From contig VGCZ01000008.1 of assembly GCA_016869975.1 (NCBI GenBank), positions 26,869 to 50,868 of the forward strand: a stretch of 24,000 nucleotides of DNA, read 5' to 3'. The notes beneath the pieces were generated by a model that was given only the letters and a program-made list of their open reading frames with translations, was not told where the DNA came from and made no database searches. Each line of letters starts with the position of its first letter. Positions within the stretch are counted from its first letter, which is position 1. The DNA comes from Alphaproteobacteria bacterium. GTDB lineage: Bacteria > Pseudomonadota > Alphaproteobacteria > Reyranellales > Reyranellaceae. Position numbers and translations under genes: made by a program. Of this stretch, positions 4,467-22,469 are shown piece after piece.

Positions 4467-5021
4467 TCAGCCGGCGGCGGCCAGCATGTAGGCGGCGTCG
4501 ATCACCAACTGCCGGGCTTTGCGCTCGTCGGACGAATAGGCGGCCGCCTCGAATTCCTCGCCGATCTCGCCGATTTCGTGCTCGGGATTGGCGGTGCCCC
4601 GGGCGTGGAGCCAATGCGTCAGCTCGTGCAGCGTCACCAACTCGAAGGCCGCACGCGTGTCGTTGAGGTTGACCATGGCCTCGAGGCCCTTGAACAACCG
4701 CGCATTGAACGTGATCGAATTGCCGAGGGCGATGGTCATGGCGTCGACCCGCTCGACCGCCTTCGTCTTGGGGTTAAGCTTCTTCATGATCGGCAGGACG
4801 AGGGCCGTAGGGCCGCCGCCGGGCCTCAGCGCCATCTTGCCGATGAGTTCGTAGTTAAAGAGCTTGCCCTTGGGAACCTGCCGTCTCCCGCCATTGGTCG
4901 CCGCGGTCATGATGTAGGCGTTCAGCAAGGGCTTGTTGTCGACCACCTTGGGCAGCTCGTTCTTCAGGTAGTGCAGGAGCCTCGGGAACTTGATGAAGTA
5001 CGTCTCGCTGGCGATGATCAT
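4467..5021 (-). CDS. Hypothetical zincin-like protein with an HExxH motif (HELTH), 184 aa; family not recognised
   Basis: ORF 4467..5321. The ATG at 5021 is preceded by GGGAG. Start MIIASETYFIKF. Motif ...FELVTLHELTHWLHARGTANPEHEIGEIGEEFE. GC is visibly lower and codon usage atypical around 4850-5020 compared with neighbouring genes. Confidence 0.6.
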   Translation of the reverse strand: MIIASETYFIKFPRLLHYLKNELPKVVDNKPLLNAYIMTAATNGGRRQVPKGKLFNYELIGKMALRPGGGPTALVLPIMKKLNPKTKAVERVDAMTIALGNSITFNARLFKGLEAMVNLNDTRAAFELVTLHELTHWLHARGTANPEHEIGEIGEEFEAAAYSSDERKARQLVIDAAYMLAAAG

Positions 5022-5149
5022 GTTCGGCTCCCACGCAGGGACGCGTAGCTGATCGCGACGATCGTCGGTCCAGTGTACGCATGCCCGGCCGCGCCACAAC
5101 CGTCGCTCGCGCGATCTTGTTGCCCGCGACGTGCAAAGTGCGCACCACC

Positions 5150-5533
5150 TCAAGCGCTGCCTTCGGTGTCGATGCGCAGCAGCATCTCCCGGAAGAAGCT
5201 GAAGTCGTCGAACCATCCGGCGCGCGTCAGCGGGTGGGTGGCGGCGACGCGCAGCGCGGTGTCGCCGAGCCGGGGCGAGGCGGGCGCGGTCTTCCAGGCT
5301 TCCATGAGCGGATGCCGCCACATCTCGGCCAGCGCGCCCAGGCGCAGCAGGATGCGCTCGGGCAGCGCAGGGTCGTACCCGAAAGTGTCGTCGAGCATCT
5401 CCAGCATCAGCGCGCGCAGGCGCTTAGGGTCTTGGTGCGTGACGCCGTAAAGCAGCGCGTGGCCTTCGAGGAATTCCTCTTCGAGCACGGGCGCGTGCGG
5501 ATCATCGGGGGGTGGATGATGGGGGTGTGTCAC
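5150..5533 (-). CDS. Hypothetical protein (127 aa), upstream partner of the HExxH protein
   Basis: ORF 5150..5533 has a protein-like composition (F, W, Y, M, D and E are all represented). The overlapping plus-strand ORF 5081..5644 looks like an Arg/Ala/Gly-rich antisense artefact. I recognise no family. Confidence 0.55.
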   Translation of the reverse strand: MTHPHHPPPDDPHAPVLEEEFLEGHALLYGVTHQDPKRLRALMLEMLDDTFGYDPALPERILLRLGALAEMWRHPLMEAWKTAPASPRLGDTALRVAATHPLTRAGWFDDFSFFREMLLRIDTEGSA

Positions 5534-8773: not shown

Positions 8774-9013
8774 ATGTCTCGACGCATTATCCTGACCGTC
8801 CACCTCGACCGAGAGCTGGCCGACTTCGTGGCGACGCGGGTCAGCGACAGACGCGCCGACGCCTATATCCGCGATCTGATCCGCCGCGACGGGGAGCGGG
8901 TGGAGGGCGAAGCGTTCGACCGATCGAAGGTCGAGGTGGCCCGAGCCTTCGCCGCGACCTCGGTTCGCTTGTTGACCACCACATCGCCTGCTATAGGCGG
9001 CGGCAATCGTTGA
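8774..9013 (+). CDS. ParD-family (ribbon-helix-helix) type II antitoxin-like protein with no adjacent toxin (79 aa)
   Basis: ATG at 8774. GC3 is high over the first ~60 codons. [36 protein letters not shown] resembles the ParD motif (...SDYVRDLIRRDQER). The C-terminal third looks degenerate. The stop overlaps the cyaY upstream region. Confidence 0.5.
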
Positions 9014-9048
9014 AAATCAACGCGCTGGGCGACGGATTCACGAAGACC

Positions 9049-9369
9049 ATGGACACCGCCTTCGACAGTGCCGCGACCCGCTTCCTGGCGGCGCTGACCA
9101 GCGCCTTCGAAGATGCGCTGCCGGCGGCCGAGGTCGACCTGGAGGGCGGCGTGCTGACCGTCGAGCTGGAAGGCGGCGGCACCTACGTGATCAACAAGCA
9201 CGCGCCGACGCGGCAGATCTGGCTGTCCTCGCCGGCCTCTGGTGCCACGCATTTCGCGCGCGACCAGGGCTCGGACCGCTGGATCGACACGCGCGGCGGG
9301 CGCGACCTCGCGCGCCTGCTCACCGACGAGATCCGCGCCGCCACCGGCGCCGAGCTGGCGTTGGGCTGA
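9049..9369 (+). CDS. cyaY: Iron-sulfur cluster assembly protein CyaY (bacterial frataxin)
   Basis: MDTAFDSAATRFLAALTSAFEDAL...VDLEGGVLTVELEGGGTYVINKHAPTRQIWLSSPASGATHF...RWIDTRGG aligns with CyaY/frataxin. The alternative TTG start at 9010 is less likely. Confidence 0.85.
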   Translation: MDTAFDSAATRFLAALTSAFEDALPAAEVDLEGGVLTVELEGGGTYVINKHAPTRQIWLSSPASGATHFARDQGSDRWIDTRGGRDLARLLTDEIRAATGAELALG

Positions 9370-9376
9370 GCGCGCG

Positions 9377-11151
<1,775 letters not shown>

Positions 11152-11742: not shown

Positions 11743-13209
11743 TCACCGACTCGTCAGCTTCAGCTCGATGCGCCGGTTCTTCGCGCGGCTCGCCGCGTCG
11801 GTGCCGGGGACCAGCGGTTTGTGCTCGGCGTGGCCGGCGGCGACCAGGCGATTGGGCGGGATGCCGTTGGCTTCGAGCACGCGCACGACGGCGATGGCGC
11901 GCGCCGTCGACAGCTCCCAGTTGGAGCGGAATTGCGGTGTGTTGATCGGGATCGCGTCGGTGTGGCCGTCGATCTGCAGCACCCAGTCGACATCGGAGGG
12001 GATGCGCTCGGTGATCTCCCGCAGGCGTCGGGCGAAATCGGCCAGCTGCTGCTCGCCTTCCTCACGCAGCGCCGCCTGCGCCGCATCGAACAGCACCTCG
12101 GACTGGAAGACGAAGCGGTCGCCGACGATGGTGACGTCGCGGCGCCCCGCCAGCGCCTCGCGCAGCTTGCCGAAGAACTCCGAGCGGTAGCGCGATAGTT
12201 CCTCGACCTTGCTGGCCAGCGCGCGGTTCAAGCGCGTGCCGAGATCGACGATCTGCGCGTTCTGGTCCTTGAGCTGCCGATCCCTGATGTCGAGCAGGTC
12301 GCCCAGCCGGGCCATCTCCTTCTTGATGGCGGCGATCTCGGCGGTCAGCCGCACGACCGCCGCCTTCTGCTCGGCGCTAAGCTTCTGCTCGGCCGACAGG
12401 TCGTCCCACAGCTTGCCCCTCTCGTTGTTGGCCGCGGCCATCGCCGCCGACAGGCGCGTGAGCTCGAGGCGCTGCCGCTCGATCTCGGCCTTCAACGCGT
12501 CAGCCATCTTCTGGTCGTCGACCAGCTGCGCCTTGGCGCGATCCTCGATGTCCTTCAACCGACCGGCCAGCCGCTCGCGCTCCTCCAGCAGCCTGGCCAG
12601 CTCCGTCCGCAGCGTCTCGCGGTCGGTGGTCATGCTGGCGATACGGCGCTGCAGATCCTCGATCTCGGCCTGCGACTTGGCGGCCGCGGCGCCCGCCGCG
12701 TCGAGGCGGCGTCTGAGCTCGTCGGCTTCGCCCTGCGACTTGCTCGCCGCGGCCGCGGCGGCGTCGCGCTCGCGCACGAAGCCCTCGACGCTCGACTGCA
12801 GCTGGTCGCGCTCGCGGATTGCGCCGGCGAGCTGCCCCTGCAGCTGGTCGCGCTCGCGGCCCAGCGCGGCGATGCGCGCCTCGGCGTCGCGCAACTGGCC
12901 CGCCAGCTGGTCGCGCGCCGTCGCCGTGTCGCGCAGCTGCGTGCCCAGGGCGCTCAAGCGGCGATCGAGGTCGGCGGATTTGGCGCGCTCGACATTGAGC
13001 ACGTCGCCCAGCGCGGCAAGCTGGGCGTTGAGCTTGTCGATGGCGCTGTCGCGGTCCGACACGGCCGAGCCCAGTGCCATCTGGCCGACGGCGTAGAACG
13101 ACAGCAGGAAGACGAAGGCCATCAGCAGGCTGGCCAGGGCGTCGACATAGCCGGGCCAGGTGTAGTCGGCGTGGGCGCCGCCGCGGCGACGGCCGGCGAT
13201 GCTGGCCAT
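11743..13209 (-). CDS. MotB-like stator/anchor subunit (488 aa): N-terminal TM helix with a conserved Asp, a ~290-aa coiled coil and a C-terminal OmpA/MotB peptidoglycan-binding domain
   Basis: ORF 11743..13209. The N-terminus YTWPGYVDALASLLMAFVFLLSF has a MotB/ExbD-style plug/TM with Asp23 (codon at 13141-13143). Residues ~50-340 are Ala/Leu/Arg/Glu/Gln-rich and heptad-like. The C-terminus is ...IDGHTDAIPINTPQFRSNWELSTARAIAVVRVLEANGIPPNRLVAAGHAEHKP...NRRIELKL (OmpA_C signature). Confidence 0.85.
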   Translation of the reverse strand: MASIAGRRRGGAHADYTWPGYVDALASLLMAFVFLLSFYAVGQMALGSAVSDRDSAIDKLNAQLAALGDVLNVERAKSADLDRRLSALGTQLRDTATARDQLAGQLRDAEARIAALGRERDQLQGQLAGAIRERDQLQSSVEGFVRERDAAAAAASKSQGEADELRRRLDAAGAAAAKSQAEIEDLQRRIASMTTDRETLRTELARLLEERERLAGRLKDIEDRAKAQLVDDQKMADALKAEIERQRLELTRLSAAMAAANNERGKLWDDLSAEQKLSAEQKAAVVRLTAEIAAIKKEMARLGDLLDIRDRQLKDQNAQIVDLGTRLNRALASKVEELSRYRSEFFGKLREALAGRRDVTIVGDRFVFQSEVLFDAAQAALREEGEQQLADFARRLREITERIPSDVDWVLQIDGHTDAIPINTPQFRSNWELSTARAIAVVRVLEANGIPPNRLVAAGHAEHKPLVPGTDAASRAKNRRIELKLTSR

Positions 13210-13215
13210 GGCGGC

Positions 13216-14415
13216 TCAGGCCTTGTCGGCTGGCGGCATGATCCGCTCGCCGGCGGTCAACGGGCGCTGATCGGCGGGCGGCGGCGCGGCGCCGCGCGAG
13301 GAGGCCAGGGTGCGCGCCAGCAGCTTGAACTCGCCGCGCAGCTCGTCGGCGAGTGCCGTGCGTCCCCGCACCGTTTCCTCGAGCAGGCGCGCCATGTAGG
13401 CCTCGAGATTGCGCAGATGCGCGCGCGTCGGATCGTCAGCCGCCTGCGCCAGCGACTGCTCGGCGAGCTTGGTGGTCAGGCCGCGCAATTCCACGGCGTT
13501 CTCGGCCAGCCGCGCCAGCAATTGTTGTTGCTGCCGCAAAGTCTCCGACAGGGTCGACAGCCGCTCGATGAGCTGGGTGACGGCGGCGCCGGTGTTCTCG
13601 CGATTCTCCTCGGAGCGCAGGAGTGTGCGCTGCAGCTTGTCGATGTTCTCCGCGCTCTGCTCGAGCAGCGCCTCGACATAGGCCGGAATCGTGCCGTCGC
13701 CGTCGACCGACAGCGTGCCGCCGCTCACCCTGGTATGCGTCGAGAGCCAGTCCTCGAGCTCGCGGAAGAAACGGTTGTTGGCCTGGCCGGCCTGCAATTC
13801 GAGGAAGCCCAGCACCAGCGAGCCGGAGAGGCCGAACAGCGAGGCGCCGAAGGCCGTGCCCATGCCGCGTAGCGGCCCTTCGATGCCGGCCTTGAGACGC
13901 GCGAACATCTGCGCCGCGTCGCCGCTGGAGACCTGCAGGTTGGCGATCGCCTCGCCGACCGAACTGATGGTCTCGAGCAGGCCCCAGAAAGTACCGAGCA
14001 GGCCGAGGAAGATCAGCAGGCCGATGGCGTAGCGCGATGTCTCGCGCGACTCGTCAAGTCGCGCGCCGATGCCCTCGAGCATCGAGCGCATGGCGACGGG
14101 CGACAGCGCCAGCCGCTTGTCGGCGCGCTCCCGCAGCATCGCCGCCATCGGCGCCAGCAGGCGCAGGTCGGAGCCGTCGGTGGCGGGAACCTCGTCGCGC
14201 TGAATGCTCTCGAGCCAGCGCACCTCGGGCCCCAGCATCCAGACCTGGCGCGCGATGTAGAGGATGCCCAGCACCAGCACCAGCAGGATGGCGCCGTTGA
14301 GCAGCATGTTGTGCTGGAAGATGCGGATCAGCTCGACGCGCAACAGCCAGGCGCCCGCGCCGACGGCGAGCAGGAAGACGAGGATGCGCAGAAGATAGAG
14401 GCGGGGGCGCGTCAT
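13216..14415 (-). CDS. MotA/TolQ/ExbB proton-channel family protein (399 aa) with a ~190-aa helical C-terminal tail
   Basis: ORF 13216..14415. Four predicted TM segments at about residues 7-25, 37-56, 129-150 and 185-207. TolQ/ExbB-like motifs IFLGLLGTFWGLLETI and GMGTAFGASLFGLSGSLVLGF are present. The stop is 6 nt from the start of the MotB-like gene. Confidence 0.85.
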   Translation of the reverse strand: MTRPRLYLLRILVFLLAVGAGAWLLRVELIRIFQHNMLLNGAILLVLVLGILYIARQVWMLGPEVRWLESIQRDEVPATDGSDLRLLAPMAAMLRERADKRLALSPVAMRSMLEGIGARLDESRETSRYAIGLLIFLGLLGTFWGLLETISSVGEAIANLQVSSGDAAQMFARLKAGIEGPLRGMGTAFGASLFGLSGSLVLGFLELQAGQANNRFFRELEDWLSTHTRVSGGTLSVDGDGTIPAYVEALLEQSAENIDKLQRTLLRSEENRENTGAAVTQLIERLSTLSETLRQQQQLLARLAENAVELRGLTTKLAEQSLAQAADDPTRAHLRNLEAYMARLLEETVRGRTALADELRGEFKLLARTLASSRGAAPPPADQRPLTAGERIMPPADKA

Positions 14416-14440: not shown

Positions 14441-14594
14441 CCTTCTCTCCGCGCGGGCGGGGAGAAGGTGCCGAGCGCCAGCGGGGCGGACGGGGGGCGT
14501 GCTCGCGCGACGACAAACGCTGTCGCTGTCGAGACTCAGTGGGGCGCCTCATCCGCCCTTCGGGCACCTTCTCCCCGCCTGCGCGGGAAGAAGG
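14441..14594. repeat. REP-like inverted doublet, variant of family 1 (core CCTTCTCCCCGC-N4-GCGGGRAGAAGG)
   Basis: Copy g is at 14441-14468 and copy h at 14567-14594. The inward-facing flanks GGTGCCGAG... and ...TTCGGGCACC are reverse complements. The doublet lies between the proline-rich OmpA-like gene and the MotA-like gene. Confidence 0.8.
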
Positions 14595-14663: not shown

Positions 14664-15986
14664 TCACGTTCCAGTGCCGCTGACCGCGTCGACCCGGTCG
14701 GCTGGGCCGCCATCGGCCGAAGCGCCCAGAGCCTGCACGTCCAGCCGCTCGCGCGCCACGCCCTTGTCGATCAGGTAGGCGCGTACCGCCAGCCCGCGGG
14801 CCAGCGACAGGCGTCGCGTCTCGGGGCCGCCGCCGCCGGAGCTGTAGGCTTTCAACGTTATCTTGCGCGCGGGATCGGCGATCATGTCGGCGGCCAGTCG
14901 ATCGAGCGCCGCGCGCGCCTCGGCCGAGAGCGCGGGCGAGTTGGCCTCGAAGGTGACGCGCGTGGCGCCAACGACGGACGGTCTGGCGGGGGCCGGGGGC
15001 GGCGGGATCACAGCGGCGGTCTGGCCGGGCCGCTCGACCGCGACGGCCGGCGCCGGTTTCGGTGGCTCAGGCGGCTGAGCGGCGACAGGCGCAGGGGGTG
15101 GTGCCGGCTTGGGCGATTCGGGCGGCGCGGCGACCACGAGCGGTGCTGCAGGCGCCGGCTTCGGTGGCTCAGGTGGTCGGGCGATGGCGGGGGCCGGCTT
15201 GGGCGGCTCCGGCGGTGCGGCGGCCGCGGCTGGCGCTACGGGCGCCGGTTTTGGCGCGACTACGGGTGCGGGCGCTGGCGCCGGCTTCGCGGCGGCCGTC
15301 TGCGTGGGGCGTTCGACGACGACGGCTGGCGCCGGCTTGGCGGCGGGCGGCGGATTGGTGATGCGCGGCGTCGGGCTTGGCGCTGGCGGCGGGCTGTCCG
15401 TCGTGCCGCCGTTGGCACCCTGGGCGGGCGCCGGAGCGGCGGCCACCGATGTGCGCGGTGGTGCCGCAGGTCGCGCGGCGCCAGAACGGCGCGGCGCGTA
15501 AGGCACGGTGCCGAACGGCCCGGACGCGCCCACTGGGTTGCCGGTCTCGGGGATCGACAGCAGGCGGCTGCGAATCGGCCCCGAAGGAGGCGGCGGCAGA
15601 CTGGCGCCGGGATCGGCGGCCCGGGGCGGGGCGGGCGGCGCGTAGAAGCCCGGTGCGCCGCCACCCGGTGCGACGCCACCCGGCTGCTGCTGTCGCCAGG
15701 GATTATAGGCGCCGACCTGGCCAGCGGGCGCCTGACCGGCGGCTGGTGCGCGCGGTCCGGTGGGCGGGTAGGCGGGTGGATAAGGCGCCACCGGCGGCGC
15801 GCCATACGCGCGTCCCGTGGTCTGGCCGGGGCCGGCCTGGGTGTAGGGGTTGTAAGCGCCCACCACGCTCGTGCCATAGCCGGGCTGCTGGGCCATGGCC
15901 GGCGGCGACACGATGGCGAGGCCTGCGAGAAGCGGCAGGACGACGCGACGCCGCGCCAGGATCGGAGAGGTCATGTTAGTCGCCAT
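14664..15986 (-). CDS. Secreted proline-rich protein (about 440 aa) with four PPEPPKPAPA-type repeats and a C-terminal degenerate OmpA-like domain
   Basis: ORF 14664..16052. The likely start is the ATG at 15986 (MATNMTSPILARRRVVLPLLAGLAIVSPPAMA-QQ, a signal peptide), with an alternative at 15974. Composition is extremely rich in Pro, Ala and Gly. The C-terminus is VTFEANSPALSAEARAALDRLAADM...ITLKAYSSGG...RRLSLARGLAVRAYLIDKGVARERLDVQALG. Confidence 0.7.
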   Translation of the reverse strand: MATNMTSPILARRRVVLPLLAGLAIVSPPAMAQQPGYGTSVVGAYNPYTQAGPGQTTGRAYGAPPVAPYPPAYPPTGPRAPAAGQAPAGQVGAYNPWRQQQPGGVAPGGGAPGFYAPPAPPRAADPGASLPPPPSGPIRSRLLSIPETGNPVGASGPFGTVPYAPRRSGAARPAAPPRTSVAAAPAPAQGANGGTTDSPPPAPSPTPRITNPPPAAKPAPAVVVERPTQTAAAKPAPAPAPVVAPKPAPVAPAAAAAPPEPPKPAPAIARPPEPPKPAPAAPLVVAAPPESPKPAPPPAPVAAQPPEPPKPAPAVAVERPGQTAAVIPPPPAPARPSVVGATRVTFEANSPALSAEARAALDRLAADMIADPARKITLKAYSSGGGGPETRRLSLARGLAVRAYLIDKGVARERLDVQALGASADGGPADRVDAVSGTGT

Positions 15987-16103
15987 GCTGAGCCGCCGCA
16001 GGGAATCGCGTCGACTGGCCCCGGAGTTCGCGCACACTACCCTGTCGCCCATCGCGTCTCAACCGCGAGCCCGGTTGTCCCCAACGCGGCGCGGGATAAC
16101 ACG

Positions 16104-17015
16104 CTAGGCCGAGGGCGCCAGCAGCTCGACGACGGGATCGCGCAGCGGCGGGTTGATGGCGAGGATCGTGGGGCCGCCCAGCGCGTAGGGCCGGCCGGCG
16201 ATATCGGAGATCACGCCGCCGGCCTCGCGCACGATCAGCGTGCCGGCCGCGACGTCCCACGGCGAGAGGTCGAACTCCCAGAAGCCGTCGAAGCGCGCCG
16301 CCGCCACCCAGCACAGATCGAGCGCGGCGGCGCCGAAGCGGCGCACGCCCGAGGTCTTGGCCATCACGGCGCGCAGGCTCTCGGTGAAACGCGCGTGGTC
16401 GCCACGCTCCTGGTAGGGAATGCCAGTGGCCATCAGCGCGCCGCCGAGCTGACGGCGGCCCGAGACGCGCAGGCGTCGCCCGCGGGCGGACGGCGTCTCC
16501 AGGAAAGCGCCGGAGCCCTTCTCGGCGTAGAACAGATCGTCGTTGGCCGGATTGTAGACCAGGCCGGCGACGACCTCGCCCTCGCGCTCCAGCGCGATGG
16601 AGATGGCGAAATGCGGCACGCCGTGCATGAAGTTGGTGGTGCCGTCGAGCGGATCGACGATCCAGCGATACTCGCCCGCGCCCTTGGTCTCGCCGCCTTC
16701 CTCGCCCAGGAAGCCGAAGCTCGGCCGGCCATGCAGGAGATGCTCGCGCAAGACTTGTTCGGCGCGCAGATCGGCGTGGCTGACGAAATCGCCCGGGCCC
16801 TTCTCGCTGAACTGCAGGTGCTCGACCTCGCCGAAGTCGCGCTTCAGCCCCTTGCCGGCGGCGAAGGCGGCGCGCTGCATAATGGTCATCAGCGGCGAGC
16901 GCGGCGCCTGGCTGGCGCGCGGTAGCGGCGCGGAGCGCTCGCGGATCGGACCCGCGGGCGCGCGGCCCACACGCGCCACCGGCCGGTCGCCGCCCTTGGT
17001 CGGTGGCCGTGTCAT
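16104..17015 (-). CDS. suhB: Inositol monophosphatase family protein (SuhB-like), with a possible ~40-aa Arg/Pro-rich N-terminal extension
   Basis: IMPase motifs FLGEEGG, WIVDPLDGTTNFMHG and DLSPWDVAAG are present. The ATG at 17015 has a good GAGGAA site 8 nt upstream. Alternative GTG starts at 16979 and 16970 and an ATG at 16889 would shorten the N-terminus. Confidence 0.85.
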   Translation of the reverse strand: MTRPPTKGGDRPVARVGRAPAGPIRERSAPLPRASQAPRSPLMTIMQRAAFAAGKGLKRDFGEVEHLQFSEKGPGDFVSHADLRAEQVLREHLLHGRPSFGFLGEEGGETKGAGEYRWIVDPLDGTTNFMHGVPHFAISIALEREGEVVAGLVYNPANDDLFYAEKGSGAFLETPSARGRRLRVSGRRQLGGALMATGIPYQERGDHARFTESLRAVMAKTSGVRRFGAAALDLCWVAAARFDGFWEFDLSPWDVAAGTLIVREAGGVISDIAGRPYALGGPTILAINPPLRDPVVELLAPSA

Positions 17016-17063: not shown

Positions 17064-17633
17064 CTAATCCTTGGCGCGTTCCATGTACTCGCCGGTCTCG
17101 GTGTTGACCACGATGCGCGTGCCGGCGCCGACATGCGGCGGCACCATGACGCGCACGCCGTTCTCCAGCACCGCCGGCTTGTAGGACGACGAGGCCGTCT
17201 GGCCCTTCACCACCGCGTCGGCCTCGACGATCTTGAGCGTCACCGACTTCGGAATCTCGATGCCCACAGGCGTGGTCTCGTGCATCGAGACGACCACTTC
17301 CATGCCGTCCTGGAGAAACGGCGCGCGCTCGGCGCCGATCATCTCCTCGGTCATGGTGAACTGCTCGTAGGAGTCCTTGTTCATGAAGTGGAAGCCGTCG
17401 CCGTCCTTGTAGAGGTACGTGCAGTCGTGCGCGTCGATGCGCACCAGCTCGACGGTCTCGCCGGAGCGGTAGCGCTCCTGCAGCTTGTTGCCTTCCTTCA
17501 GCGCGCGCGCCTCCAGGGTGACGAAGGCGCCACCCTTGCCGGGGTTGACGTGCTGCACCTTCATCGCGGCGTAGAGGCGACCGTTGACGTCGATGACGTT
17601 GCCGGCGCGGATGGTGTTGATGGGCACTTTCAT
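17064..17633 (-). CDS. efp: Translation elongation factor P (189 aa)
   Basis: ORF 17064..17666 with an internal ATG at 17633. MKVPINTIRAGNVIDVNGRLYAAMKVQHVNPGKGGAFVTLEARAL... has the PGKG loop (Lys33). The C-terminus ...VNTETGEYMERAKD is also conserved. Confidence 0.9.
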   Translation of the reverse strand: MKVPINTIRAGNVIDVNGRLYAAMKVQHVNPGKGGAFVTLEARALKEGNKLQERYRSGETVELVRIDAHDCTYLYKDGDGFHFMNKDSYEQFTMTEEMIGAERAPFLQDGMEVVVSMHETTPVGIEIPKSVTLKIVEADAVVKGQTASSSYKPAVLENGVRVMVPPHVGAGTRIVVNTETGEYMERAKD

Positions 17634-17668
17634 GGCGATCCGACCGAAGCTCGATGGCAAAAACACGG

Positions 17669-21107: not shown

Positions 21108-22469
21108 CTAATCCATGCCGTAGCTCGCGGCGTCGAGGCGAAAGAGGAGTCCTCGCCAGTCGCGCACGCCGGTATCGTGCCGGTAACGATTGGCGTCGGC
21201 GACCTCGCGGTACAGCGCCATCGCCGCGCGATCGTCGAGCGCCTGGACGTCGCAACACAAATGCTCGGCCATCAGATCGCAGCGCAGCCGGCACGCGATC
21301 TCAGGGTCATGGAACGAGCAATTCATCTCGGTGCTGCCTTCGAGCGAGAAGGCGTGCAGGTTGCACGAGCCTATGGTCGCCCAGACATCGTCGACGATCA
21401 TCACCTTGTCGTGGACGTAGATGCCGTAGGGCGTGCCCTTCGCGTCATGGCCCTGGATGCCGGCGAGCCGGAAATTCGGGTAGCGGTCGAGCGCGCCGAG
21501 CTGCGCGAACAGCGCCTGCCGTTCGCCGCGGCGGCGCGCCTCGCGCACGAAGGGCTCGACCTCGGCCGGCACCAGCATGTTGACGTCGACACCGCGCTTC
21601 AACGCCGCTTCGAGCCGCTCAGCCACGGCGACGATCGGCACCGACTGGTTCTCGATGTAGATCGTGCGCCGCGCCGCCTCGATGGCGCGCAGGTACTGGT
21701 CGAGGATCGACCGCTCGCCACCCGCGATGTCGAACGGCCGTCCCTCGGGCGTCGCCGCGCCGTCGCGGTAGCGGCCGGCATGCACCGTGCGCTGAATCTG
21801 CACCAGCGCGCGGCCGCGCGGCACCGAAAGGCTGGTCGGAAAGGCCAGCTGGTCGTCGCCGGTATGGCCCCAATGGCCATCCTCGACGTCGCGCTCGCTG
21901 GCCTCGTTCCAGCGCTGCGTGAAATTGTGGTGCACGTCGGTGGCGGCGGGGCCTTCGATCTCGAGGTAGAGGTCGTGGCGCTGGCCGGGGCCGGGATGGC
22001 CCGGCACGCTGTCGCCGCGCAGGGTCATGTTCACGCCGCCGACGAAGGCGATCTCGCAGTCGCGGCCGGCGTCGATCAGCCAGCTCTTCTGATGCTGGCA
22101 ATAGGCGTCGTGCGCGCGATCCCAACGCGCGCGCCAGCGCGTGCCGCGCGCGCCGAGGAACTCGCGGTCGAGCGCCGTGCCGCGGAAGGCGGTGACGTTG
22201 CCCTCCAGCGTATTGGGCCGCCAGAAGATCACCCGCACGTCCAGCCCACGCGCGGCCGCGCGATCCAGCACGTCGAAGAACGAGCCGCGCGCGTCGGGCA
22301 TGCGGAAGTCGATGGTGGCGAAGGCGGCGCAGATCCACACGCTGTGACGCGCGCGCTCGACCGCCTCGCAGATGCGCCGGAACACCGGCGTGCCGTCGAT
22401 CAGCGGCTTGAGCGCGTTGCCGGCGCGCACGGGATAGGAGCCGGACTCGACGAAGGGAACGTGGCTCAT
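21108..22469 (-). CDS. Phospholipase D superfamily protein with two HKD motifs (453 aa)
   Basis: ORF 21108..22469. HKD 1 is [12 protein letters not shown]...GGVN. HKD 2 is [19 protein letters not shown], a perfect HxK(x)4D(x)6GSxN. Confidence 0.8.

Follow-up and report, generated by a model that had tools for sequence, protein, structure and literature searches.

The functions known for ion-driven motors of the 5:2 type are few and comprise flagellar rotation, Ton-dependent uptake, envelope maintenance by Tol-Pal, gliding and Zorya defence. In a recent survey of the relatives of MotAB, pairs without a flagellar role are classed together as 'generic ion transporters', and the trees do not include Zorya-like proteins (PMC12505986). 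Another pair, termed 'motA' (348 amino acids (aa), four predicted transmembrane (TM) helices) and 'motB' (321 aa), was chosen in Komagataeibacter hansenii as the sole candidates for motility genes of this aflagellate species, whose genus possesses neither flagella nor other flagellar genes (PMC6570709). Overexpression of these two genes leads to elongated cells, a three-fold wider spreading of colonies and looser cellulose, and GFP fusions are located at one or both cell poles (PMC6570709); disruption mutants are viable and form denser cellulose (PMC7347698). Here, we analyzed a pair of genes, referred to as A and B, in 24,000 nucleotides (nt) of DNA from an alphaproteobacterium of the family Reyranellaceae (assembly GCA_016869975.1, contig VGCZ01000008.1, positions 26,869 to 50,868), the whole of which is called the window. 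A reading of this DNA based on the letters alone (the sequence-only reading) had proposed that the two genes encode an uncharacterised, non-flagellar, ion-driven machine of the cell envelope. Our analysis identifies the pair, by the fold of A, the TM aspartate of B and the polar residues of A, as a predicted relative of the 5:2 ion-driven motor superfamily which is widespread in Alphaproteobacteria, and shows that MotA and MotB of K. hansenii are its orthologues.

Identification of the A/B gene pair

The coordinates of the two genes (Table 1) are exactly those given by the sequence-only reading, as is the spacing of 6 nt between the stop codon of A and the start codon of B (TGA-gccgcc-ATG) that had led to the proposal of a coupled pair. 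Both open reading frames display the pattern of real genes, with a GC content at third codon positions (GC3) of 0.90 and 0.93 for A and B, respectively, in a sequence of 69% GC. Tandem repeats at the DNA level were found in neither gene, a search for sigma-70 promoters and terminators around the operon yielded only a terminator-like hairpin upstream of efp, and an Rfam scan of the window identified no RNA family.

Table 1. Features of the A/B locus; positions refer to the window.
Feature	Position	Strand	Description and evidence
Gene A	13216..14415	minus	399 aa; MotA/ExbB/TolQ-fold, ZorA-like channel subunit; open reading frame, PADLOC, Foldseek, homologues
A membrane core, residues 5-207	13795..14403	minus	Invariant columns, motif alignments, AlphaFold2 helices
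A T142, motif LGLLGTFWG	codon 13990-13992	minus	Invariant
A tail, residues 208-399	13219..13794	minus	Cytoplasmic, helical, heptad-like; AlphaFold2 and periodicity
Gene B	11743..13209	minus	488 aa; MotB/ZorB-like subunit, NCBIfam NF006543 member
B TM helix, residues 21-42	13084..13149	minus	Single TM helix, motif WPGYVDAL
B Asp23	codon 13141-13143	minus	Invariant in 48 sequences
B coiled coil, residues 43-353	12151..13083	minus	Periplasmic; AlphaFold2 helices, heptad z, indel map
B length-variable middle, residues ~108-190	12640-12888	minus	Holds 14- and 21-residue repeats; indel map
B OmpA/MotB-type peptidoglycan-binding domain, residues 360-488	11746..12132	minus	Pfam, PDB, Foldseek, invariant columns
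Upstream OmpA-like gene	14664..16052	minus	Secreted; likely accessory partner
C-terminal OmpA-like domain of the upstream protein, residues 367-445	14718-14954	minus	PF00691, E = 1.1e-10
Palindromic REP/MITE-like element (REP, repetitive extragenic palindrome; MITE, miniature inverted-repeat transposable element)	14441..14594	.	154 nt, between the OmpA-like gene and A
suhB	16104-17015	minus	Pfam Inositol_P; conserved upstream neighbour
efp	17064-17666	minus	Conserved upstream neighbour

The channel subunit A

We assign A to the MotA/ExbB/TolQ superfamily as a divergent member that most closely resembles ZorA. Four TM helices are predicted (residues ~5-27, 38-60, 129-150 and 185-207), and the two motifs from which a MotA/TolQ/ExbB-type channel had been proposed, LGLLGTFWG and AFGASLFGLSG, are both present and sit within hydrophobic helices. 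In an alignment of 53 homologues, residues G138 to L147, including T142, as well as S192 of the second motif and S199 are invariant. When a profile of the membrane core was aligned by hhalign with single E. coli proteins, GLLGTFWG was matched to GLFGTVWG of TolQ and ExbB, which puts T142 at the position of the conserved threonine of these channels; at the low probabilities obtained (TolQ 20%, ExbB 37%, MotA 3%), such alignments are useful for the TM motifs only. The region of the TM motifs also aligns with TM2/TM3 of Shewanella ZorA.

No Pfam or NCBIfam family was reached above threshold by A. Pfam MotA_ExbB scored 18.7 bits at a cut-off of 22.9, and the family members tested, ten in number, all likewise matched this model just below the cut-off. 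The PADLOC model ZorA1 matched residues 123-293 (E = 6.4e-12). Sequence searches of the PDB with the single protein and two profiles gave no significant match, the full-length profile returning coiled-coil noise; the sole match of the family profile was type I ZorA (8vvn), at an E value of 3.3 that is not significant alone. Foldseek comparison of an AlphaFold2 monomer model (mean predicted local distance difference test (pLDDT) score 66) with the PDB returned TolQ, ExbB and ZorA chains as the top 39 matches (probability 0.57-1.0, E ~0.01 to 0.3), with TolQ ranked first. The likeness to ZorA noticed earlier is therefore supported both by the profiles and by the only match among PDB sequences.

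The helices of the model include residues 167-228, 245-323 and 329-374, and the tail is heptad-periodic (z = 5.3 compared to shuffled sequence), in agreement with the helical, heptad-like tail of about 190 residues that had been predicted. Its tip is conserved (HLRNLEAYMARLLEE...RTALADELRGEFKLLARTLA), also in the Komagataeibacter-type orthologue. In most genomes A is ~380 aa long (range 352-432). Some metagenomic homologues, e.g. ones labelled Reyranellales (P0026-P0031, P0037, P0052 and others), reach 610-690 aa by tandem expansion of a tail unit of ~45 residues (...HQRN.E..LARL.EE..R.R..L.EELR...).

The predicted wall-binding subunit B and its coiled coil

Residues W18, P19, Y21, V22 and D23 of B are invariant in an alignment of 48 sequences and are also found in the Sinorhizobium and Komagataeibacter-type orthologues. 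Thus, the aspartate that had been singled out as the diagnostic TM residue is retained throughout, as are T142 and S192 of A, and none of the aligned homologues has lost the aspartate or the channel motifs. The C-terminal peptidoglycan-binding domain, also recognised earlier, is of the canonical MotB type, and binding to the cell wall is predicted: PF00691 matches residues 373-479 (E = 6.6e-15), and the pocket residues D418 (GHTD) and R437 (NWELS..R) are invariant in the same alignment. This part of B matches the periplasmic domains of MotB, PomB and MotS in a PDB sequence search and those of MotS, PomB and MotB by Foldseek (E ~1e-10). PADLOC ZorB3 (E = 3.4e-26) covers the C-terminal residues 321-484 only. 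As a whole, B belongs to NCBIfam NF006543 (PRK09039.1-2, 'peptidoglycan-binding protein'; 382.7 bits, cut-off 305); the best stretch comprises residues 215-488, the model having 350 positions and the coiled coil of the window protein being longer.

Between the TM helix and the OmpA domain, ~310 residues form a coiled coil. An AlphaFold2 monomer model (mean pLDDT 75) consists here of helices 18-154, 159-264 and 273-353, with breaks at 155-158 and 265-272; heptad periodicity is pronounced (z = 10.6 compared to shuffles), and the Fourier peak lies at 3.5 residues. The internal repeats mentioned in the sequence-only reading exist at the level of the protein rather than as tandem repeats in the DNA. 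They comprise 21-residue units, AAAAAASKSQGEADELRRRLD / AAGAAAAKSQAEIEDLQRRIA, and RERDQLQ units, and the unit lengths of 21 and 14 residues correspond to whole numbers of heptads.

The length of B differs widely between species, with 320 aa in the Komagataeibacter type, 342 in S. meliloti, 488 in the window, 550 in one Falsiroseomonas and 995 in Falsiroseomonas stagni, and the coil ranges about four-fold from ~150 (Komagataeibacter type) to ~640 residues (F. stagni). Among the closest 47 homologues, insertions and deletions are confined to the part corresponding to window residues ~108-190, and no residues are gained or lost in the flanks (43-107 and 191-353). In the F. stagni protein (locus L080, 8140-11127), the coil contains tandem RELAEARTQGQALSRDL-type repeats and is followed by the OmpA domain and an extra domain of ~180 residues with a weak match to DUF4384.

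Fully extended at 0.15 nm per residue, the coil would measure ~22 to 96 nm across species, compared to a distance of ~9 nm between inner membrane and cell wall in E. coli (PMC11946911). The coil can therefore not be a straight spacer determining how far the wall-binding domain extends, and has to be either folded back or aligned with the membrane or the wall. Of the options that the sequence-only reading had derived from the length of the linker, folding back or lying along the wall thus stand, as does the excess length itself, but a role as a 'periplasmic ruler' is unlikely given the four-fold variation between species. It might be hypothesized that the coil folds back as a hairpin, as the breaks in the modeled helices at 155-158 and 265-272 and the centring of the indels near residue 150 would suggest; however, conservation of the second break region does not extend to the short Komagataeibacter-type protein. 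No covariation was observed between the length of the A tail and that of the B coil (rho = 0.01, n = 51 loci).

A coil of this kind raises the question of whether B is mainly a static tether or scaffold, i.e. a structural link between inner membrane and peptidoglycan which is held in the membrane by A and in which ion flow and rotation are vestigial. The variation of B from 333 to 995 aa and the repeat-expanded coil would be in line with such a role, since they resemble structural coiled-coil proteins, as would a weak match to the Pfam family 'Filament' and the lack of an output partner nearby. However, neither Asp23 of B nor T142 or S192 of A varies between orders, a constancy that would hardly be expected if no ion path were working, and the tip of the A tail is strongly conserved. 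We therefore regard a mainly static role as quite unlikely.

Distribution and chromosomal context

Among 8,000 candidates scored, more than 7,900 matched for each subunit. The membrane-core profile of A recovered 649 clusters (50% identity) at E <= 1e-30 and 3,070 at E <= 1e-3, and a scan of one genome per species yielded at least 581 relatives. Accordingly, the architecture, which the sequence-only reading had taken to be a singular combination, is instead standard for a large family across the Alphaproteobacteria. The best 80 of the at least 581 relatives served as the sample for synteny. Almost all of them are Alphaproteobacteria, among them Azospirillum, Nitrospirillum, Niveispirillum, Caenispirillum and Reyranella, along with Defluviicoccus, Acidisoma, Falsiroseomonas, Elioraea and Kiloniellales.

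The two genes are separated by a median of 15 nt, and the gap does not exceed 20 nt in 38 of 51 loci. Among 60 loci, suhB was found in 46 and efp in 45, in each case upstream of A and in the same orientation; in syntenic loci an ATP-binding cassette (ABC) exporter, often with cyaY, lies downstream in convergent orientation. The gene order efp, suhB, (OmpA-like), A, B is shared by loci ranging from Rhodospirillales and Acetobacteraceae to Sinorhizobium, including an S. meliloti chromosome which PLSDB lists as a plasmid and on which the neighbours are housekeeping genes only. Flagellar genes were found neither in the syntenic loci nor at the S. meliloti locus nor on the Komagataeibacter-type contig described below (L085). 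A search of 2.9 million viral contigs revealed no relative of the pair, and only five matches were obtained in the plasmid collection, all on replicons of 3.5-4.6 Mb typed as non-mobilizable. These replicons are from Sinorhizobium and Shinella (CP090106.1, NZ_CP069303.1, NZ_CP104131.1 and others); CP090106.1 is labelled pSymB but carries genes for ribosomal proteins as well as purE and purK and, thus, looks like a chromosome. The divergence of A is uncorrelated with that of SuhB or EF-P (rho ~0.04-0.05), the loci all being about equally distant from the window. Taken together, the fixed synteny and the lack of relatives on viral contigs and mobilizable plasmids indicate vertical inheritance of a chromosomal locus among conserved housekeeping genes rather than a variable defence island.

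This context bears on the possibility that the pair is a Zorya-like sensor of infection or envelope damage which is retained in the core genome, its effectors being encoded elsewhere or absent. ZorA1 and ZorB3 are the best specific models for A and B, type I ZorA is the only match among PDB sequences, and a helical cytoplasmic tail is common to A and ZorA. However, no ZorC, D, E, F or G and no other defence matches were obtained beside the pair among the 13 window genes scanned with PADLOC, the housekeeping synteny is fixed across orders, relatives are absent from viral contigs and mobilizable plasmids, and the proteins themselves differ, since the tail of A has ~170 instead of ~500 aa and ZorB lacks a long coiled coil. 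A role as a defence sensor appears very unlikely on these grounds.

Orthologues in Komagataeibacter

The forward primer used to clone motA of K. hansenii (PMC6570709) matches a metagenome contig, L085, without mismatch. All four cloning primers are located at the gene ends of this contig with 0-1 mismatch, and the primers for quantitative PCR (qPCR) have 4-5 mismatches; L085 therefore originates from a close relative and not from the same K. hansenii strain. The contig carries efp, suhB, a proline-rich OmpA-like gene, A (348 aa) and B (320 aa). Its A protein is 47% identical to that of the window over the full length including the tip of the tail (E = 3e-85), and its B protein shares the WPGYVDAL helix and, over the C-terminal 198 residues, 49% identity with that of the window; the OmpA-like gene resembles its counterpart in the window at E = 1e-12. 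The primer matches together with these identities show MotA and MotB of K. hansenii to be orthologues of A and B.

Apart from the K. hansenii papers, our literature searches on PRK09039 and on ZorAB-like, non-flagellar MotAB and MotA-like proteins revealed no publication defining the family, and the pair is mentioned neither in a study on Rgs and Tol-Pal proteins of S. meliloti (PMC7327166) nor in a list of alphaproteobacterial signature proteins (PMC2241609). The earlier description of the pair as an uncharacterised machine is thus only partly appropriate: it fits no known system, but B already falls under NF006543, and the orthologues have been genetically manipulated in K. hansenii.

The K. 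hansenii proteins have been read as motility proteins, and homologues of the pair are labelled 'flagellar motor protein MotA' and 'chemotaxis protein MotB' in databases. Consistent with these labels, the C-terminal domain of B is most like those of MotS, PomB and MotB, and A has four predicted TM helices, as does MotA. Nevertheless, A matches none of the NCBIfam flagellar models, MotA included, and B scores only 52-99 bits against cut-offs of 250-312 for MotB, MotD and MotS. The cytoplasmic loop between TM2 and TM3 of A comprises only ~68 residues, flagellar genes are missing from the window and the syntenic loci, and orthologues exist in Komagataeibacter, which has neither flagella nor other flagellar genes (PMC6570709). 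An ordinary flagellar stator, i.e. a paralogue of MotAB, MotCD or PomAB, is thus essentially excluded.

The upstream OmpA-like gene and further features of the locus

Directly upstream of A, the window contains a gene for a secreted OmpA-like protein. The sequence-only reading had correctly listed efp, suhB and a thioesterase gene as neighbours but had overlooked this one. The protein has a signal peptide (...AMA|QQ; probable start M23 at 15986) and ~300 proline-rich, low-complexity residues with PPEPPKPAPA repeats. In its C-terminal domain, AYA/AYS replaces the canonical GHTD, so that its binding to the wall may be atypical. Such a gene lies immediately upstream of A in 39 of the 66 loci with enough flank, with gaps elsewhere ranging from -3 nt (ATGA overlap) to ~100 nt; it is present in the Komagataeibacter-type locus and missing at that of S. 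meliloti. It is likely a frequent accessory of the A/B system.

The presence of this gene would be in line with a Tol/Ton-like energiser, in which the proton motive force is used to pull or remodel either the OmpA-like protein or the coil of B, the latter as a fusion of TolR, TolA and Pal in a single chain, and thereby to control how inner membrane, wall and outer membrane are spaced or connected. In addition to the position of the gene, which in some loci overlaps A by 4 nt and is kept in L085, the PPEPPKPAPA repeats recall the spacer of TonB/TolA, the TM3 motif of A is nearly identical to GLFGTVWG of TolQ/ExbB, and TolQ is the first match by Foldseek. However, many loci, including that of S. 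meliloti, are devoid of the OmpA-like gene, and the upstream protein has a cleavable signal peptide and neither a membrane anchor nor a TonB/TolA-type TM motif. Furthermore, its OmpA-like domain is lacking the aspartate of GHTD, and B carries an OmpA domain, which TolR and ExbD do not. Hence, an energiser of this kind is unlikely, if slightly less so than a static tether.

The gap of 248 nt between the OmpA-like gene and A in the window is due to the insertion of the 154-nt palindromic element, the spacing being 35-100 nt elsewhere. The complementarity of the 32-nt arms of the element is 91%, and each arm ends in a 28-nt hairpin unit (CCTTCTCYCCGC...GCGGGGAGAAGG); no such element would be expected by chance, and no further copies occur within the window. 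The thioesterase gene adjoining B is convergent and, thus, outside the A/B operon. A parallel to the ybgC-tolQ arrangement of E. coli was considered and rejected as coincidence, since the gene is convergent and seldom conserved.

As had been stated before, flagellar, chemotaxis, Tol-Pal, TonB-receptor and Zorya partner genes were found nowhere in the window. A PADLOC scan of 13 window genes, including the OmpA-like gene, gave no match to Zorya partners or other defence genes beside the pair; efp, suhB, the thioesterase gene, the ABC exporter gene and cyaY were identified by Pfam or sequence, outside that scan. Beyond the thioesterase gene, the window encodes a TctC fragment, a 2-oxoglutarate (2OG) oxygenase, HSP20, an amidohydrolase, two GNAT acetyltransferases, CyaY and the ABC exporter, and beyond efp a glyoxalase, a major facilitator superfamily (MFS) transporter, a catechol dioxygenase, a nitroreductase, a phospholipase D (PLD)-family protein and YjbR.

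Some of these genes display features of their own. The frataxin-like cyaY (9010-9369, plus strand) is followed by the Atm1/MsbA-like ABC exporter gene (9242-11151, plus strand), which is convergent to B; this pairing is kept beside A/B in many Alphaproteobacteria (e.g. L019, L064, L078 and L081) and recalls mitochondrial frataxin and Atm1. In the window, the exporter gene consists of two overlapping open reading frames with a frameshift at ~10520, an apparent 1-nt deletion in the Walker A motif (GETVAL|VGPSGAGKT) that represents either a sequencing error or a pseudogene. An open reading frame at 4467-5321 (minus strand) encodes a Tox-MPTase3 (metallopeptidase toxin) domain (30.4 bits, cut-off 25); it lies in the lowest-GC stretch of the window, fails the GC3 test, which the other genes pass, and may have been horizontally acquired. 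The two-domain PLD-family protein (21108-22469, minus strand), encoded 7 kb from the pair, has weak PADLOC matches to DrmC and MkoB (E = 1e-9), which probably reflect generic homology within the PLD family, as for an enzyme resembling cardiolipin synthase, rather than a role in defence.

Proposed function

By analogy to MotAB and ZorAB (PMC11946911), two B subunits would be enclosed by a ring of five A subunits. The passage of protons between A and B would involve protonation and deprotonation of Asp23 of B and, as in these motors, might turn the ring of A around the wall-anchored B dimer. The cytoplasmic tail of A would rotate with the ring, and its conserved tip would be the likely site of output or docking, while the coil of B, either folded back or lying along the wall, would serve as a tether or scaffold. 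The fixed chromosomal context, the occurrence in an aflagellate genus and the phenotypes in K. hansenii point to a role in the envelope, in cell length or at the poles over one in motility or defence. On balance, we favour the view, though with moderate confidence, that A and B form a MotAB/ZorAB-type ion-driven, wall-anchored complex with such a role.

Several points weigh against this view. The phenotypes of K. hansenii were obtained by overexpression and with plasmid-borne GFP fusions, for which polar artefacts are possible, their authors interpreted them as motility, and no envelope phenotype has been reported for these orthologues. A is too divergent for any curated MotA_ExbB threshold, lacks a significant match among PDB sequences and reaches E values of only ~0.01 by Foldseek. 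The structure models are of monomers only, with the mean pLDDT values of 66 for A and 75 for B, and stoichiometry, ion flow and rotation are drawn from analogy. In addition, a long flexible coiled coil looks poor as a rigid anchor for torque, and no cytoplasmic partner for the tail of A is encoded nearby.

It might further be speculated, although we consider this rather doubtful, that the pair is an unrecognised, class-wide housekeeping 5:2 motor which, driven by the proton motive force, acts on the wall as a winch or tether through the coil of B, in some cases jointly with the secreted OmpA-like protein, and signals or acts in the cytoplasm through the tip of the A tail, and thereby controls envelope spacing, elongation or the poles. 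As part of the same scenario, the pair may be the ancestral, non-defence form of the ZorAB lineage.

What was known already is the NF006543 label and the genetics in K. hansenii; what is new is the definition of the family as a putative 5:2 motor branch of the ZorAB lineage. The pair would add to the few known motor functions a further branch at a fixed alphaproteobacterial position, whose length-variable B coil and conserved A tail match none of the others. To our knowledge, Alphaproteobacteria are devoid of Braun's lipoprotein, and their envelope is organised unlike that of E. coli. An additional wall-anchored, proton-powered machine could thus bear on envelope geometry, elongation and the marking of poles. 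The influence of the Komagataeibacter orthologues on cell length and on the structure of bacterial cellulose is of practical value, and the defence motor ZorAB gains a non-defence relative for comparison. Sinorhizobium, Azospirillum and Komagataeibacter are tractable hosts of the family.

Comparison with known motor systems

No profile placed the pair squarely within a characterised system. In agreement with the sequence-only reading, it fits none of them, as the flagellar models remain below their cut-offs and partners of the Zorya, Tol or Ton systems are missing. With the flagellar stators MotAB, PomAB and MotPS, the pair shares the adjacent A and B genes, a predicted four-TM A subunit, the TM aspartate in (Y/F)VDA(L/M) and the periplasmic domains of MotS, PomB and MotB as the structurally closest to that of B. 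In contrast to these stators, the short cytoplasmic loop of A is devoid of the torque-generating interface, A has a C-terminal tail, the linker of B is much longer, and the family occurs in an aflagellate genus and outside any flagellar context.

TolQ and ExbB are the top Foldseek matches of A and share its TM motif (GLFGTVWG compared to GLLGTFWG). The chromosomal envelope context is likewise common to the Tol and Ton systems, and the OmpA-like protein and its proline-rich spacer recall Pal and TonB/TolA, respectively. However, TolR and ExbD have a small periplasmic domain, in place of which B carries an OmpA domain together with a coiled coil, and the anchored transducer of the TolA/TonB type has no equivalent at the window locus, which also has no TolB or TonB-dependent receptor gene nearby; the NCBIfam models for TolA, TolB, Pal and TonB gave no match above cut-off.

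NF006543, of which B is a member by score, provides a curated name and no function. MotA and MotB of K. hansenii are shorter than the proteins of the window, with a B coil of ~150 and an A tail of ~135 residues, and they have been examined only with regard to the structure of cellulose, the length of the cells and the spreading of colonies.

The best specific profile matches for both subunits are to ZorAB (ZorA5B2). ZorA has three TM helices (PMC11946911) compared to four predicted in A, and the tail of E. coli ZorA comprises ~500 aa (residues 223-729; PMC11946911) compared to ~170 in A. ZorB has no long coiled coil, whereas 150-640 residues of periplasmic coil are present in the B proteins of the family, and Zorya systems reside in defence islands together with the partners ZorC-G, whereas the A/B pair stands without such partners in a fixed housekeeping synteny. 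In common, the two systems have the TM aspartate in the B subunit, a threonine and a serine on the two inner helices of the A subunit (T147 and S184 of ZorA, T142 and S192 of the window protein), a peptidoglycan-binding B subunit and a helical cytoplasmic tail on A.

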